Source: a virus (taxonomy: Duplodnaviria > Heunggongvirae > Uroviricota > Caudoviricetes). Taken from it: a DNA stretch of 7,970 nt. This document shows, piece by piece, positions 1 through 7,722 of this stretch. Positions within the stretch are counted from its first letter, which is position 1. Every line of letters begins with the position of its first letter. The stretch lies in IMG/VR virus record IMGVR_UViG_2698536392_000014, positions 1 to 7,970 of that record. The stretch is one strand, 5' to 3'. Made by a program: the position numbers and the translations under genes. The notes beneath the pieces were generated by a model. The model did not search any database, was not told the DNA's origin, and saw only the letters and a program-made list of their open reading frames with translations.

Positions 1-378
1 CGCATGACAAAAGAGTTGACAGGTAAAACTCTGTTTATGGCGCTCAGGAGCCAGCGCCCACCTGCCGGGATAATCCACCACTCTGATCGAGGTTCACCGT
101 ACTGCGCATACGATTACCTGGTCATACAGGAGCAGTTTGGTCTGAGAACATCAATGTCGCGTAAAGGTAACTGTTACGACAACGCTCCGATGGAAAGCTT
201 CTGGGGAACGCTGAAAAATGAGAGCCTGAGCCACTATCGTTTTAATAACCGGGATGAAGCCATCTCAGTAATACGGGAATACATTGAGATTTTCTACAAT
301 CGTCAGCGTCGTCACTCTCGTCTGGGGAATATCTCCCCGGCAGCCTTCAGGGAAAAATATCATCAGATGGCTGCTTAA
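1..378 (+). CDS. IS3-family transposase OrfB (DDE integrase core), C-terminal 125 codons; 5' end outside window
   Basis: Frame is open from position 1 to TAA at 376-378. The translation (...HHSDRGSPYCAYDY...SMSRKGNCYDNAPMESFWGTLKNE...FYNRQRRHSRLGNISP...) matches, from memory, the C-terminal catalytic region of IS3-group OrfB proteins (compare IS3 InsF ...HTDRGGQYCSADY...[24 protein letters not shown]...YNRWRRHS...). Confidence 0.85.
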   Translation, partial: RMTKELTGKTLFMALRSQRPPAGIIHHSDRGSPYCAYDYLVIQEQFGLRTSMSRKGNCYDNAPMESFWGTLKNESLSHYRFNNRDEAISVIREYIEIFYNRQRRHSRLGNISPAAFREKYHQMAA

Positions 379-395
379 AAAAAGAACAAATGGTA

Positions 396-421
396 GTGTC
401 CGCTATTGCCAGTACACCTCA
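396..421. repeat. putative right terminal inverted repeat of the IS3-family element
   Basis: GTGTCCGCTATTGCCAGTACACCTCA resembles the inverse of the IS3 left end as I recall it (..CAGCAATAGTGGACAC.., terminal TGA/TCA); about 19 of 26 positions agree. The IS3 reference is recalled, not looked up. Confidence 0.4.
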
Positions 422-1482
422 AGAGTGTCAGTTGCGCTCTGATTTGTTCCTTCATCTTCAAACACGCCCTTTGTAGTCAGGTATTCAGTAATGTATTTGT
501 TCAGTGCCACAGGGTCTTTGTGAATGTCGATCGGACGTTCACGGACAAGGCCAAAAATAGTCTGGCGGTCGTAGCGAAGGGCATCAGGCTGTTTGCGCAT
601 TGATGCCGAGATACGCTTCCAGTCTTCGCGGCCGTTGTCGATAACTTCATTTTTTGCCCAGCGATGGATGCTGCCGTCAATGTTTCCGGCATCCACATCA
701 CCAGGCCAGAGAGCGTAGGCCAGTTCGTCATCCAGTGTTTTCCATGTCTGCTTGTATTCGCGATGAATGGCAGCAATGACCGGGCTGATTTTTCCTGTTG
801 AATTTTCAGTGTACTGTTGATTGGCTCTGGCGCGGGCGAGATCAACAACAGACGTGTATTTTCCGGTTTCCTTGCGTTCACCTTCGCGACGTTTTTTCCA
901 GATGCGCATTTCTGTCTGAATTTCGGGCCATTTGGCACCAGGCTTACATTTATGCTTAACCCACCCGATAGCATGCAGCTTAAGCTCCGGATACATGGCG
1001 TTAACTTCTGGCATTTTCATCAACGCTTCAACGATATGTCCGTCGAATGTTGCCATGTCTTCCTGCAACAATTCCTGCGCGCTAATCACCATATCAACGG
1101 TGATGTTTTCACATGTGTCGAACTTAACCATGACAGCGTTCTGTACTTCAGGGGCCAGCTTGTCAAAAGCGACGTTCATCGGATCTGATTCAGTCTCAAC
1201 CGGGACAAAGGAAGCAGACTCCTCATCCCAGCGGTTTTCCTGCATATATTCAGCATCCCAGGAATAGAGGGCAGGGCGGGGTATACCGGGTTTATCCTCG
1301 CAAACAAGAAATTTATAAGCGCAGTCCTGAGCAGCCGGATAATGCTCCAGGAATTGCCAGTGAAATTTTGCGCGGGCGCGACGTTCATCACCGGCTTCAA
1401 TGGCAGTGGCTACAGCGACTGCACCTTCTTCCTTTATTGCCTGTTCGTCCGGAATGGCGGCGCAAATAAAGACTTTACTCAT
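403..1482 (-). CDS. hypothetical protein, 359 aa; 3' end probably truncated or replaced by the IS insertion
   Basis: Long ORF with ATG at 1482 and a GAGG Shine-Dalgarno 9 nt upstream. Several shorter ORFs on both strands inside it look like shadow ORFs. Its last ~6 codons and TAG stop (403-421) lie inside the putative IS terminal repeat. No catalytic motif recognised by eye. Confidence 0.7.
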   Translation of the reverse strand: MSKVFICAAIPDEQAIKEEGAVAVATAIEAGDERRARAKFHWQFLEHYPAAQDCAYKFLVCEDKPGIPRPALYSWDAEYMQENRWDEESASFVPVETESDPMNVAFDKLAPEVQNAVMVKFDTCENITVDMVISAQELLQEDMATFDGHIVEALMKMPEVNAMYPELKLHAIGWVKHKCKPGAKWPEIQTEMRIWKKRREGERKETGKYTSVVDLARARANQQYTENSTGKISPVIAAIHREYKQTWKTLDDELAYALWPGDVDAGNIDGSIHRWAKNEVIDNGREDWKRISASMRKQPDALRYDRQTIFGLVRERPIDIHKDPVALNKYITEYLTTKGVFEDEGTNQSATDTLEVYWQ

Positions 1483-1761
1483 TTTGTTTTACCTCATTAC
1501 AGATTTCAGAGTGAACGAATCCCTGCCATTGCTGGCATTTTTAATCCGTTGGTATGGTGTTAATATGGCTGGAGGGTTATCCAGCCGGTGTTTCGTTATT
1601 CAGGTACAGCGATACTTTTTTTACCGGGAGGCATTCACCAGAAATTTTTTGCTCGTCTCTTGCCTGGAGGCAGGATTCTTTACTGGCATAAATTCCGGTA
1701 ATCACATTCTGTGATTCACCCGTTATAAGAAAAACCGTCATCATCAGTGCAAATGCTGAAG

Positions 1762-1950
1762 TTATTGACGTTCTCCGAAAATACCAAGTTCAAGAAGAGC
1801 AATTCGGGAAAGTATGGAATTATCATTGAGCAGATAAGGCTCATATTTCCTCATATTAATGGCATCTTCAGTAAACTCCCGGTTACTGAGCAGAACACCA
1901 ATATCAAAACAACCTTCAGACGTATTAACGTTTGGTAATAACGTTTCCAT
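1762..1950 (-). CDS. small hypothetical protein, 62 aa (METLLPNVNTSEGCFDIGV...)
   Basis: The ORF track gives 1762..2055 from a GTG; an internal ATG at 1950 is preceded by GAGGA 7 nt upstream and is the more plausible start. Same strand as neighbouring leftward genes. No family recognised. Confidence 0.4.
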   Translation of the reverse strand: METLLPNVNTSEGCFDIGVLLSNREFTEDAINMRKYEPYLLNDNSILSRIALLELGIFGERQ

Positions 1951-2055: not shown

Positions 2056-2518
2056 TGTTTTTGGTTTTAACTGTTCCGCGTGCGCTGAGCCGCATTCACC
2101 GCATCACAAAATTCACTTTAAAAAGGGCGGCAGAGCAGCCACGGAGTAAAACTGATACCGCCAAACGTCACCAGAAAATTGATAACAGAGGGCGTTGCAG
2201 CGGGGTTGTCACTTAAGCGTATGGTCAACCTGACAACCCTGTGTCCTCAACGGGGGAAGGGATAACCCCGCCATACTTACCGCCGCGCCATTTCGCGGAT
2301 TGCCACAACCGGAAGCGCACGGTCGACGAAAATTTAACGACAGGCTATCTATGAACCAGCTACCTCGCCGTGCGCTTTCGCGTTATGGTCTGACTTTTCA
2401 GGGAAATATCCTTTCAGTAAACTGTCAGTGCCGGATGCTCACCCGTGTCCGGCGCACGCACTCCACCTCACCCGTGGAGAACTCCTTAATTACCAACCTT
2501 AGCTTCGTTGGTTAGCTA
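2056..2518. other. ORF-free, hairpin-rich region (about 460 bp) inside the leftward gene arm
   Basis: No ORF with a credible start on the minus strand (checked by hand in three frames). Contains an 11-bp stem (2201-2211 with 2231-2241), two adjacent stem-loops each carrying CTCACCCGTG (2438-2447, 2467-2476) and a 6-bp stem-loop at 2492-2512. Confidence 0.4.
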
Positions 2519-2737
2519 TTAACGCGGGTATGTAATCATTCTGGCAATGCTTAATGCCGCTGCTTTTTCCAGATTGGTGATATCCTGCTCCAGAGCGGAC
2601 AGATTTTCAGCCTGCTTAGCCCTGGCTTCATTGGCCCATTTCAGCTCCTGCGCTGCATTAATTTTCTGGTGCATCCACTCATAAAGTTCATCATCGGTAT
2701 AGTCTGGCGCGATGATGACGGGTTCTCGTTTCTGCAT
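2519..2737 (-). CDS. small hypothetical protein, 72 aa
   Basis: ATG at 2737 preceded by a consensus AAGGAG Shine-Dalgarno 5 nt upstream (reverse complement of CTCCTT at 2743-2748); TAA stop at 2519-2521. Predicted helical and charged. No family recognised. Confidence 0.55.
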   Translation of the reverse strand: MQKREPVIIAPDYTDDELYEWMHQKINAAQELKWANEARAKQAENLSALEQDITNLEKAAALSIARMITYPR

Positions 2738-2828
2738 GTCGGCTCCTTGTGGTTAGCGTTGCCTGCTTTTAACCACGTCAGGCGAGGTGGTATCCTTTGA
2801 GGGTCTGTTACTCGAGAGGAAATTGGTT

Positions 2829-3029
2829 ATGAATACAATCAAGTTTTCTTGCCCAGAATGTGGCGGCGAAGTCTTTGACACATCCTTTAAACCGCATGGC
2901 TCTGACAGTTTCGCGGGAGCCATCTGCAAAAATTGTGGTCACCTTGTAACTGAAGATGAGTCCTCGCAGTTTGATGACGAAATCGTTGACAATATCTTCG
3001 GTGCACTCACCAGAGACTTTCTGAAGTAA
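2829..3029 (+). CDS. small zinc-ribbon protein, 66 aa (CPEC-x22-CKNC)
   Basis: ATG at 2829 with GAGAGGA 8 nt upstream; two CxxC pairs with zinc-ribbon spacing; acidic C-terminal tail; no rare codons. Overlapped codon-on-codon by an antisense ORF (2808..3164), treated here as its shadow. Confidence 0.5.
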   Translation: MNTIKFSCPECGGEVFDTSFKPHGSDSFAGAICKNCGHLVTEDESSQFDDEIVDNIFGALTRDFLK

Positions 3030-3440: not shown

Positions 3441-4085
3441 CTAGAGGCTGAACTGAACACCTTTTGCTACAGCAACGATGTTACATTCCGGTGTAAGTAA
3501 GGATGATTGATAGCGTGGGTTAAGGGGGGCTAAGTACACGAGCTTTCCATCAATAACTAATTTTTTTATAGTCATGGATGGTTCGTTTGTGAGTGGATCT
3601 GGGACTATTACTGCGACGATGCTACCATTTTTATATTTTTCGCCAGGCCTCATGATCACTGTGGCTCCAACTGGAATGCTTGGGGATCCTGATGGATTGT
3701 GCATAGTATCATCAGGCATTGAAACGGCAAAATCTCCCTCCTTGACATCAAAGAATGTGGTGATCCTGTCGACATTTCCCATAGTTTTCTCTCCTTTTAA
3801 TATTAGGAAAGAAATCGCTTCTCCCCAAGAAAGGTATGGGATTTGGGTACCTGGATTTTTCTGCACAAGGGATGATTCAGGTGATGATACTCCATACAGG
3901 AGATAGGACTCAGTAGTGCCTAGTGCTAGGGCTAATTTACTAAGAGCTTTGCTACCTGGTTCGTTTAGATCTTTCTCCCAGTATCCTATTGTTACCCCAG
4001 TTACGCCAGAAAGCTTGCCAAGTTCAACTTGGGTCAGACCTTTGTCTTTTCTGAGTTTCTTAAGCCTAATGCCAAGGCTTTCCAT
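3441..4085 (-). CDS. LexA/cI-type phage repressor (N-terminal HTH, C-terminal S24 autopeptidase domain), 214 aa
   Basis: N-terminal HTH (..KGLTQVELGKLSGVTGVTIGYWE..); C-terminal S24-like region with candidate catalytic Ser (..FAVSMPDD..) and Lys (..TIKKLVIDGKLVYLAP..); GGGAG Shine-Dalgarno 6 nt before ATG at 4085; divergent from a Cro-like gene. Confidence 0.9.
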   Translation of the reverse strand: MESLGIRLKKLRKDKGLTQVELGKLSGVTGVTIGYWEKDLNEPGSKALSKLALALGTTESYLLYGVSSPESSLVQKNPGTQIPYLSWGEAISFLILKGEKTMGNVDRITTFFDVKEGDFAVSMPDDTMHNPSGSPSIPVGATVIMRPGEKYKNGSIVAVIVPDPLTNEPSMTIKKLVIDGKLVYLAPLNPRYQSSLLTPECNIVAVAKGVQFSL

Positions 4086-4184: not shown

Positions 4185-4412
4185 ATGCGAGTTGATGAAC
4201 TTGTCCAGTTTTTTGGTTCTGTCCAAAGAGTCGCTGATTTTTATGGGGTAACCCGAGAAGCTATATACATGTGGCGTAAGCGTCCCGGCGAAATAGTTCC
4301 CAAGGGGAGGGCTGCTGAAGCAGTTGCATACTCCAAGGGAAAATTATCGTTGAACCCAGAACTTTACAAAAAGAAGGATAACACCTCGAACGAAAGGAAA
4401 AATGATTCATGA
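4185..4412 (+). CDS. Cro-like HTH regulator (P22 Cro / YdaS-like), 75 aa
   Basis: Divergent from the repressor; strong Shine-Dalgarno; the HTH segment (..FGSVQRVADFYGVTREAIYMWRK..) resembles, from memory, the P22 Cro / YdaS pattern (..FGTQRAVAKALGISDAAVSQWK..). Confidence 0.8.
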   Translation: MRVDELVQFFGSVQRVADFYGVTREAIYMWRKRPGEIVPKGRAAEAVAYSKGKLSLNPELYKKKDNTSNERKNDS

Positions 4413-4705
4413 AAATCAAACATGAACACATCCGCATGGCGATGAATGCCTGGGCATATCCTGATGGTGAGAAAGTGCCTGCAGCTGAAATAGCCCGGAC
4501 TTATTTCGAACTTGGGATGACGTTCCCGGAACTGTACGACGACAGCCATCCGGAAGCCCTGGCCCGTAATACCCAGAAAATTTTCCGCTGGGTGGAGAAG
4601 GATACGCCTGATGCGGTTGAAAAAATTCAGGCGCTGTTACCGGCGATCGAAAAGGCGATGCCGCCTTTGCTGGTGGCCCGTATGCGCAGTCACAGTTCTG
4701 AATAA
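4409..4705 (+). CDS. YdaT-like / CII-analogue small regulator, 98 aa
   Basis: Start overlaps the cro-like stop (ATGA at 4409-4412), with AAAGGA 10 nt upstream. The N-terminus MKIKHEHI... matches my recollection of YdaT-family proteins that follow Cro-like genes in Rac-type prophages. The family assignment is recalled, not verified. Confidence 0.7.
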   Translation: MKIKHEHIRMAMNAWAYPDGEKVPAAEIARTYFELGMTFPELYDDSHPEALARNTQKIFRWVEKDTPDAVEKIQALLPAIEKAMPPLLVARMRSHSSE

Positions 4706-4855
4706 ATGGCTGAACTGCTGAATGATGCACATCCGGAATGGAGTTTAAGAACCTGTGAAAGACGCATTGAGCATTGGCTAAAGGTGGCAGAATTTATTTT
4801 GTACAAACCAATGGTTATGGCTTCTGGTATAGAGAAAAAAGTTATTGCTTTTTGA
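4706..4855 (+). CDS. possible small ORF, 49 aa, coupled to the preceding gene (TAAATG)
   Basis: ATG directly follows the TAA of the YdaT-like gene and ends before the intrinsic terminator; no Shine-Dalgarno of its own. Below the 60-aa cutoff of the ORF track; found by hand translation. Confidence 0.3.
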   Translation: MAELLNDAHPEWSLRTCERRIEHWLKVAEFILYKPMVMASGIEKKVIAF

Positions 4856-5425: not shown

Positions 5426-6502
5426 ATGCTTAATACTGTAAAAATATCCAGTTGTGAGTTAATCAACGCTGATTGCCTGGAATTTATCCAGACCTTACCG
5501 GAAAACTCTGTCGATCTGATAGTCACAGACCCGCCATACTTTAAAGTGAAGCCCGAGGGCTGGGATAACCAGTGGAAGGGCGACGATGATTACCTGAAGT
5601 GGCTGGACCAGTGTCTGGTGCAGTTCTGGCGGGTGCTGAAACCTGCCGGAAGTCTTTACCTGTTCTGTGGCCATCGCCTGGCATCTGACATTGAAATCAT
5701 GATGCGTGAACGCTTCAATGTGCTGAACCATATTATCTGGGCGAAGCCGTCCGGACGCTGGAACGGGTGCAACAAGGAAAGCCTGCGGGCGTATTTTCCG
5801 GCCACAGAACGCATTCTGTTCGCGGAACATTATCAGGGGCCGTATCGTCCGAAAGATGATGGCGATGAGGCGAAGGGCAGGGCACTGAAACAGCATGTGA
5901 TGGCCCCGCTGATTTCTTACTTTCGTGATGCGCGTGCTGCTCTTGGGATAACGGCAAAACAGATTGCAGATGCCACAGGAAAGAAAAACATGGTGTCGCA
6001 CTGGTTCAGTGCCAGTCAGTGGCAGCTACCGAACGAAAGCGATTATCTGAAATTACAGTCGCTGTTTGCCCGGGTGGCAGAAGAGAAACATCAGCGGGGA
6101 GAACTGGAAAAGTCCCATTACCAACTGGTCAGCACATACAGTGAGCTGAACCGGCAGTATATGGAACTGCTGAGTGAATATAAGCATCTGCGGCGGTATT
6201 TCGGTGTGACGGTGCAGGTGCCGTACACCGATGTGTGGACGCATAAACCGGTGCAGTACTATCCAGGGAAACATCCGTGCGAAAAACCGGCAGAAATGCT
6301 GCGGCAGATAATCTGCGCGAGCAGTCGTCCGGGTGACCTGGTGGCGGATTTTTTCATGGGTTCTGGCTCAACCATAAAAGCAGCTATGGAGCTCGGGCGT
6401 CGTGCAACTGGTGTTGAACTGGAGGCAGAACGTTTTGCGCAGACCGTTAAGGAGATTAGTCACATCCTTACATGCTCAATTGATGACGGGAAGGATGGAT
6501 AA
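5426..6502 (+). CDS. DNA methyltransferase, beta-class amino-MTase (N6-adenine or N4-cytosine), 358 aa, apparently orphan
   Basis: Motif IV DPPY near the N-terminus (..VDLIVTDPPYF..) and AdoMet motif I near the C-terminus (..DLVADFFMGSGSTIKAA..); order IV-I defines the beta class, with a central target-recognition region containing an HTH-like stretch. No restriction endonuclease gene adjacent. ATG at 5426 has no obvious Shine-Dalgarno. Confidence 0.9.
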   Translation: MLNTVKISSCELINADCLEFIQTLPENSVDLIVTDPPYFKVKPEGWDNQWKGDDDYLKWLDQCLVQFWRVLKPAGSLYLFCGHRLASDIEIMMRERFNVLNHIIWAKPSGRWNGCNKESLRAYFPATERILFAEHYQGPYRPKDDGDEAKGRALKQHVMAPLISYFRDARAALGITAKQIADATGKKNMVSHWFSASQWQLPNESDYLKLQSLFARVAEEKHQRGELEKSHYQLVSTYSELNRQYMELLSEYKHLRRYFGVTVQVPYTDVWTHKPVQYYPGKHPCEKPAEMLRQIICASSRPGDLVADFFMGSGSTIKAAMELGRRATGVELEAERFAQTVKEISHILTCSIDDGKDG

Positions 6503-6633: not shown

Positions 6634-7271
6634 AATACATACTGGCATTAATGTTAAGTTCAGGGATAATTCATCGTATTTTGTGGTACGACGCTATCAA
6701 TATTAATAAACAGTATTTTTCATGTAAAATTTCTGTTTTTTGATCTGATTCTCGTTTCCTGGGTTATGATGTTGTTGTGAACCATGCTGTTGAATGATAA
6801 TGTTCGGGTATAAAATTGTTGCTGATATGTAGCGCAGTGAGCAGGTGGTATTTCTGTTGCTGAGTGTACGGATACAGTGCTTCCCTCCCTCAGCGGGGGG
6901 GCAGGTGTGCTGTGGTTTTAGAGACACCGGAAACGAGAATGATGCGGGTTTGCTGGTGCCGGGATAGAGTCGCCGGAGGTCATGACATAGAGCAAAAAAG
7001 GAATGTGCATGCAAATACACACCTCTTCGGAGATCTCTTCTTTATATGGATGAGCCTCAAGGTCAATAGTTTATCTGTTATGTATTCATATGTTGTTACT
7101 TATATAATCCATACGGGCATATCATCAGTACACACATACTATTATGGCATTTTATTTTTGTTTTAACTGAATTCCCGGGGCACTCTTTTTGATTTCTGAT
7201 AAGGAACCAGAATTTTCTGTTAAATGGTGTCACGTTGTAAATGGTTAATGGAAGCAGCTTATTATCCATAA

Positions 7272-7295
7272 TCACACCTGAGTTAACAGGTGTGA
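7272..7295. promoter_or_regulatory. perfect 9-bp inverted repeat TCACACCTG-AGTTAA-CAGGTGTGA, candidate binding site for a dimeric regulator
   Basis: Exact palindrome arms with a 6-bp spacer, inside an ORF-poor AT-rich region about 430 bp upstream of the next gene start. Confidence 0.35.
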
Positions 7296-7722
7296 GAATA
7301 CTTCCGGGTGGCAGGAACACATCTGACTGATACCAGATTATCAACTTTATTTTACACCATACAGTTGAAAACGTTATTCCGCTTGATGGGCATATCACTG
7401 TGTCAATAACTATCCATTCCATCTTTTAACCTTCTCGGTACACATTGCTTTCGATTGTTTTGCTAAAAATCATAGTCAATAAATCAGTGTAACTCATTGA
7501 AAAAGATCGTCTTCTTTGTCTTCCTGGGGTTTTCTTTTCTAATTTTGTATCACTTTGGTTCAAGTTGTTTCATTTTTTTGTAATACAAATTAGCAGGATG
7601 AGCGGGAATATAAAAAAATCGGATGTTTTTGTAATGGATATTATTTTTTGTAAAATAATGTATTTTTATTTAAATCTCTATCAGAAAAGAATTTATTGTT
7701 CCTTTATATGGTGGAAAAGGTC

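Follow-up and report, generated by a model that had tools for sequence, protein, structure and literature searches.

At the far end of the leftward early operon of the prophage in the window (the whole stretch of DNA that was analysed, 7,970 nucleotides), an ORF encodes a 359-aa protein, and the locus raises the question of what that protein is and whether it does anything. A preliminary description, made without database searches, presented it as an orphan without recognizable motifs. We find that, on sequence homology, the ORF is not an orphan but corresponds to the 5' 43% of a prophage exonuclease gene already known, of the ydfE kind. With high confidence we read it as a gene whose nuclease end was lost to IS600 and a deletion, and which is most likely a functionless remnant. 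The features on which this reading draws are collected in Table 1.

The placement of the ORF in the preliminary description is borne out by its ATG start and upstream GAGG on the minus strand, and its account of the product agrees with the residue counts and motif position: the protein is Trp-rich (11 Trp, 3.1%) and charged (61 acidic and 46 basic residues), carries RPIDIH at residues 316–321 and contains no P-loop. It was also right to report no catalytic signature; the 359-aa product contains no catalytic motif because the C-terminal nuclease domain is missing.

Table 1. Features of the ydfE-type remnant and of the adjoining early region, in window coordinates.
Feature	Position	Strand	Basis or remark
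3' part of IS600 (IS3 family)	1..421	+	Only the last 421 bp of the element lie in the window; Pfam and PGAP
IS600 transposase OrfB, C-terminus	4-378	+	Pfam rve, rve_2, rve_3
ORF under study, truncated ydfE-type prophage exonuclease gene (pseudogene remnant)	403..1482	-	ATG start, 359 aa
IS-encoded ORF tail (third base of codon L354, EVYWQ, TAG stop)	403..421	-	Codon read-out
Native remnant, residues 1-354	422..1482	-	Homology to the intact protein and to uninterrupted prophages
Residues 346-354, start of the long acidic linker, IS600 insertion site	422..447	-	pLDDT below 50
Domain 2, residues 240-345, helical; assigned to PF27432 YdfE_C	448..765	-	AlphaFold block, pLDDT 93-97
Domain 1, residues 1-225, alpha/beta then helical; assigned to PF27430 YdfE_N	808..1482	-	AlphaFold block and Pfam names on homologues
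Shine-Dalgarno GAGG	1492-1495	-	9 nt upstream of the ATG of the ORF
DUF1482 protein gene, position of K-12 Qin ydfD, same operon orientation	1577..1765	-	Pfam DUF1482, PGAP coordinates
dicB (cell-division inhibitor), upstream, same operon	1762..1950	-	PGAP on the near-identical locus
DicF small RNA	2125..2176	-	Rfam RF00039, 75 bits, E 1.3e-15
ydfC	2519-2737		Leftward early operon
cI/LexA-like S24 repressor	3441-4085		

Read leftward, the window contains the repressor, ydfC, DicF, dicB, the DUF1482 gene and then the ORF. This order agrees with the earlier assignment of the ORF to the leftward early arm, the site of recombination or nuclease functions in lambdoid phages. In intact phages the gene order is cI ... 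ydfC, DicF, dicB, ydfD, exonuclease, xis, int. The prophage in the window is decayed: its integrase is truncated, xis is lost, and the replication/nin region is replaced by joined YdaT and DUF1133 fragments, so that it is presumably unable to excise. The YdaT-family ORF (4409–4705) runs straight into the DUF1133 fragment (4706–4855), and PGAP calls both incomplete; based on this fusion of fragments, a deletion took the prophage replication and nin region. Three further genes were observed in the same region. Between ydfC and the repressor, a small plus-strand ORF with two CxxC pairs (2787–3029) runs against the direction of the early-left operon; PGAP annotates a shorter form of it (~2829–3029) as an 'ECs_2282 family putative zinc-binding protein'. 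The decayed prophage also encodes a 358-aa N6/N4 DNA methyltransferase that is apparently intact (5426–6502; Pfam N6_N4_Mtase, E 1.9e-42), followed by an iraM-like gene (7096–7422, minus strand) in AT-rich DNA.

The ORF matches the PHROG 2082 'exonuclease' profile with an E-value of 3.9e-274, its residues ~1–354 aligning to profile positions 1–355 of 823. With the N-terminus of its closest intact relative, the 816-aa WP_000048499.1 of E. coli E2865, it shares 348 of 354 residues (98%) in an ungapped alignment. A search of 5.8 billion proteins returned 775 matches; those listed bear the name 'exonuclease', and two newer Pfam families, PF27430 (YdfE_N) and PF27432 (YdfE_C), are assigned to them. 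Our local copy of Pfam-A places no family on the ORF because it predates these two families, which are found only in a newer Pfam release. The NCBIfam model NF007259 (exodeoxyribonuclease VIII equivalog) aligns residues 246–342 of the ORF to model positions 271–368 (E 3.6e-12) at 45.2 bits, far under the curated equivalog cut-off of 1269 bits; the intact parent, at 259.7 bits, is also under it.

The N-terminal two-domain match to the ydfE-type exonucleases (PHROG 2082; PF27430 and PF27432) runs end to end, and the gene order of the window, compared with three other loci (L001, L003 and L007), is that of the ydfE type with xis and part of int deleted. The C-terminal nuclease domain needed for a functional member is absent. 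The ORF is a ydfE-type exonuclease family member by descent, but a pseudogene, and nothing that we found contradicts its identification as a remnant of this kind. Public annotation already records the finding: NCBI contains the exact 359-aa product, one entry being a hypothetical protein from E. coli O165:H25 str. 2010C-4874, and at a near-identical locus in strain 2013C-4830 (L002) PGAP annotates an 'exonuclease; incomplete; missing C-terminus' with, as its neighbour, a 'tyrosine recombinase, missing N-terminus'.

Intact ydfE-type proteins are 816–823 aa long and include WP_000048499.1, TRITO_27 of phage Tritos, and the proteins of mEp460 and Evi (PHROG 2082). They are composed of YdfE_N (residues 1–225), YdfE_C (240–345), a ~290-residue linker that is acidic, mostly disordered and marked by a CxxC...CxxC motif, and a C-terminal Rv2179c-like 3'-5' exonuclease (635–806), which in WP_000048499.1 is recognized as the Pfam Rv2179c-like 3'-5' exoribonuclease domain of DnaQ-type fold (E 9.7e-66). 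Residues 1–354 of the window copy are 91–98% identical to these proteins and the synteny is the same, but residues 355 to the end, comprising the acidic CxxC...CxxC linker and the Rv2179c-like domain, are absent. In the viable phage Tritos, an intact 823-aa gene occurs in the same synteny and is followed by xis and int. This comparison with uninterrupted homologues, which the preliminary description had proposed, recovers the native C-terminus and upholds its suspicion that IS sequence had taken the place of the native 3' end, so that the protein is truncated and probably inactive. Without its nuclease end, the 359-aa product cannot be a nuclease.

The foreign end derives from IS600, annotated by PGAP in near-identical genomes as 'IS3-like element IS600 family transposase'. 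Its terminal inverted repeat ends at window base 421 (reverse complement TGAGGTGTACTGGCAATAGCGG), and uninterrupted prophages align to the window by megablast from 422 onward. The minus-strand sequence across the junction is ...ACT GAC ACT CT/T GAG GTG TAC TGG CAA TAG, where the slash marks the boundary; Leu354 is the last native residue, and the terminal EVYWQ and stop (GAG GTG TAC TGG CAA TAG) lie inside the IS600 terminal repeat. Among 5426 complete E. coli genomes, this exact junction is present in 2 and a near-identical one in 2 more.

Simple insertions of IS3-family elements produce a 3-bp duplication. The L002 locus contains the full-length element (1264 bp, positions 8158–9421), with terminal inverted repeats and a two-ORF transposase to which PGAP assigns a 'programmed frameshift', but its flanks, GAA/IS/AGA, show no 3-bp target-site duplication. 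Relative to the PPompW prophage, used as reference, the left flank breaks off within intE, the right flank resumes at codon 354, and 2377 bp are missing, comprising the exonuclease gene from codon 355 onward, xis and the N-terminal part of int. Due to the lack of a duplication and the position of the left flank in int, the likely history is therefore that IS600 inserted and a deletion next to it followed, or that two IS copies recombined. In the reading that we prefer, codon 354, where the linker begins, took the IS600 insertion, and the ~2.4 kb from codon 355 through xis to the N-terminal part of int was then lost in a deletion adjoining the element. The reading frame extends 16 nt into the IS600 terminal repeat and stops after five foreign residues. 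By analogy with K-12 ydfE, the remnant may still be transcribed with dicB once the prophage repressor is lifted, and its product would be a folded two-domain protein of 359 aa that has no nuclease activity and most likely no function.

Up to approximately base 6900, the window differs from 2013C-4830 only by five substitutions in IS600 (at 28, 70, 98, 119 and 146; window 1–150 compared with L002 9001–9150). Beyond this point the position-by-position comparison breaks down, which we take as an indel. Exchange or gene conversion with one of the many other IS600 copies of the genome may account for these differences in the window copy.

The part of the protein that is retained is predicted to be well folded. 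An AlphaFold2 model of the ORF, built on 66 diverse family sequences, has a mean pLDDT of 89.6. In domain 1, pLDDT is 92–98 over most of residues 1–200 (82 at 91–100) and 63–73 over residues 201–225; the linker at 225–235 and residues 346–354 are disordered in the model. Judged from this prediction, both retained domains are complete and the break lies inside a disordered linker. Searching the PDB with the sequence of the 816-aa parent gave matches in the nuclease domain only (8kel), the family profile had no match in the PDB, a Foldseek search against viral predicted structures (BFVD) gave no match at E ≤ 0.001, and a structural search of the PDB provided no informative neighbour for the ORF model. 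As modelled, neither YdfE_N nor YdfE_C matches a characterised fold. Of the structural checks suggested in the preliminary description, prediction thus delivered a confident two-domain model, while the similarity search in the PDB and BFVD delivered no informative neighbour.

The family as a whole is small, with 170 clusters at 50% identity among 1.84 billion representatives, and it is mosaic. The first module is either of the YdfE_N type or of the unrelated type seen in RecE residues 1–270, and domain 2 (YdfE_C) is found in nearly all representatives. Of the 66 aligned sequences (the window ORF and 65 representatives), 22 (Pfam Exonuc_VIII) and 14 (DUF3799) have a RecE-type C-terminus and 10 an Rv2179c-like one. 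A PHROG 7838 domain forms a third, uncharacterised C-terminus in ~18 full-length representatives, and one representative that we examined (P0126) has a PHROG 26058 C-terminus. These domain combinations suggest that the N-terminal region may be a portable targeting or adaptor unit.

The ~18 representatives with the third C-terminus (P0130–P0249; L008 2920–5052, from Stenotrophomonas phage BUCT708) carry a ~270-aa domain that also occurs as the stand-alone PHROG 7838 'exonuclease'. Its motifs FGPxGxGW and KKSLTDAxKKALSxLGFSADV are nearly invariant, and in its AlphaFold model (pLDDT 85) a long coiled coil comes after a beta-beta-alpha-beta(n)-alpha core. The domain has no match in Pfam or in a PDB profile search. 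In BUCT708, a Gp157-family gene lies downstream. We considered a Rad52/RecT-like annealase, with which the strand and helix order is compatible, but Foldseek found nothing in the PDB and hhalign against Rac RecT gave a probability of 0.1%, so this assignment is unsupported.

Truncation of the gene by IS600 is recurrent. Three different IS600 junctions fall within 4 bp of one spot (window 418–426; L006 2279–3542; L009 1735–1760). The window junction, ...GACACTCT/IS, yields the 359-aa product; the Shigella sonnei junction, ...GATAC/IS, yields a product of 358 aa; and in E. coli strain 20.1 the junction ...GATACT/IS belongs to a simple insertion with an AGT duplication, in which the IS supplies a TGA stop after 353 aa and both gene halves are still present. 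The flank contains a stem-loop-like palindrome, AGAGTGTCAGTTGCGCTCT (422–440), that partly resembles the IS600 end, suggesting that the site is an insertion hot spot. The IS-truncated alleles of 353–359 aa, which recur in other lineages, could reflect such a hot spot, or a fragment that is tolerated or useful.

Two other readings of the ORF have to be weighed against a functionless remnant. One, the leading idea of the preliminary description, is an orphan early gene outside known families with a new host-takeover or anti-defence function. The empty local Pfam result and the lack of an informative structural neighbour in the PDB and BFVD are what this reading would lead one to expect, but the ORF is homologous over its full length, at near identity, to ydfE and to the N-terminal region of a prophage exonuclease family that is widespread and already named; this leaves the orphan reading next to no chance, and we reject it. 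The homology search that the preliminary description had put forward as a check, with assignment to a characterised family counting against the orphan, made just such an assignment. The other reading is that the truncated product is a working stand-alone protein, in which YdfE_N and YdfE_C were retained as an autonomous adaptor or partner-binding module; a nuclease-free fragment of this kind could bind the target as a competitor, a regulator or a factor beneficial to the host. The break exactly in the disordered linker, with both domains whole, is consistent with this, as are the good ribosome-binding site that is kept and the fusion of the module to at least three C-terminal types (RecE-type PD-(D/E)XK, Rv2179c-like and PHROG 7838), as would be expected of a portable adaptor.

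The three separate junctions within 4 bp, giving products of 353, 358 and 359 aa in E. coli and Shigella sonnei, also favour a stand-alone protein, but a target hot spot at the IS-end-like palindrome accounts for this recurrence, and the strain 20.1 insertion is a simple one that keeps both gene halves. Moreover, the cut in K-12 ydfE falls at residue 257, within domain 2, and the truncations therefore share no 'useful' boundary. The prophage around the ORF has undergone heavy decay, and the literature searched for a ydfE function or phenotype yielded only pseudogene or list mentions. A low dN/dS (0.20 relative to the intact allele) would speak against an inert remnant, but it comes from only 14 differences that probably predate the truncation and is uninformative about relaxed selection. 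On balance we give a working stand-alone product a very slim chance. The more general proposition, that the YdfE_N/YdfE_C pair is an autonomous targeting or adaptor module and that IS-truncated stand-alone copies still bind its partner, we regard as improbable. According to this proposition, enterobacterial and other phages attach the module to RecE-type 5'-3' nucleases, DnaQ-type 3'-5' nucleases, and PHROG 7838 and PHROG 26058 domains, and if it were true, recombination, phage infection or host physiology would be influenced by stand-alone copies, among them the window ORF, K-12 YdfE and the 353/358-aa alleles of Shigella sonnei. The window contributes a further example of a gene disrupted by an IS in a decayed prophage, here from a Shiga-toxin-type E. 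coli lineage.

The closest parallel to this remnant is ydfE itself (b1577), a pseudogene of the Qin prophage of K-12 that is 96% identical to the ORF over the first 257 residues. It occupies the same operon position (ydfC, dicF, dicB, ydfD, ydfE), is also truncated by an IS, and is likewise followed by a damaged integrase gene (intQ'). The two copies differ in the element and in the point of truncation: K-12 ydfE was cut by IS2 (IS2E) within domain 2, whereas the window copy was cut by IS600 at residue 354, after domain 2. The immunity regions also differ, with a cI/LexA-like S24 repressor in the window and DicA/DicC in K-12 Qin. Transcription from dicBp in K-12 is described as capable of covering dicB and ydfD together with three pseudogenes, ydfE, insD7 and intQ (PMC11430063).

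A more distant parallel is RecE of the Rac prophage (exonuclease VIII, 866 aa), which like the parent of the ORF is a large early-left protein. Both contain the YdfE_C module, found at approximately residues 271–370 of RecE by BLASTP and NF007259, but RecE aligns to the intact parent only at parent residues 262–618 (38% identity), covering domain 2 and the CxxC...CxxC linker, and the first 270 residues of RecE are a different module from YdfE_N. The catalytic domains differ as well: that of RecE is a PD-(D/E)XK 5'-3' exonuclease (PF06630 Exonuc_VIII), while that of the parent is a DnaQ-type, Rv2179c-like 3'-5' exonuclease. A PD-(D/E)XK C-terminal domain is absent from the ORF, and the intact parent has no Exonuc_VIII match. 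RecE works with the adjacent RecT, encoded directly downstream of recE in Rac; no annealase (RecT-type) gene is annotated at the near-identical locus L002 or in the intact relatives L003 and L007. As the match is limited to non-catalytic regions, the catalytic domains differ and recT is missing, the ORF is not a RecE orthologue. The N-terminal region of RecE has no known function, and full-length RecE improves linear-linear recombineering (PMC11611040). The ~350-residue module retained in the window includes a domain in common with the N-terminal part of RecE, has a fold that is predicted with confidence, and occurs with several C-terminal partners; identifying what it binds would make it clearer how these large phage nucleases are directed to their targets. 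What the ORF has in common with RecE are thus non-catalytic modules.
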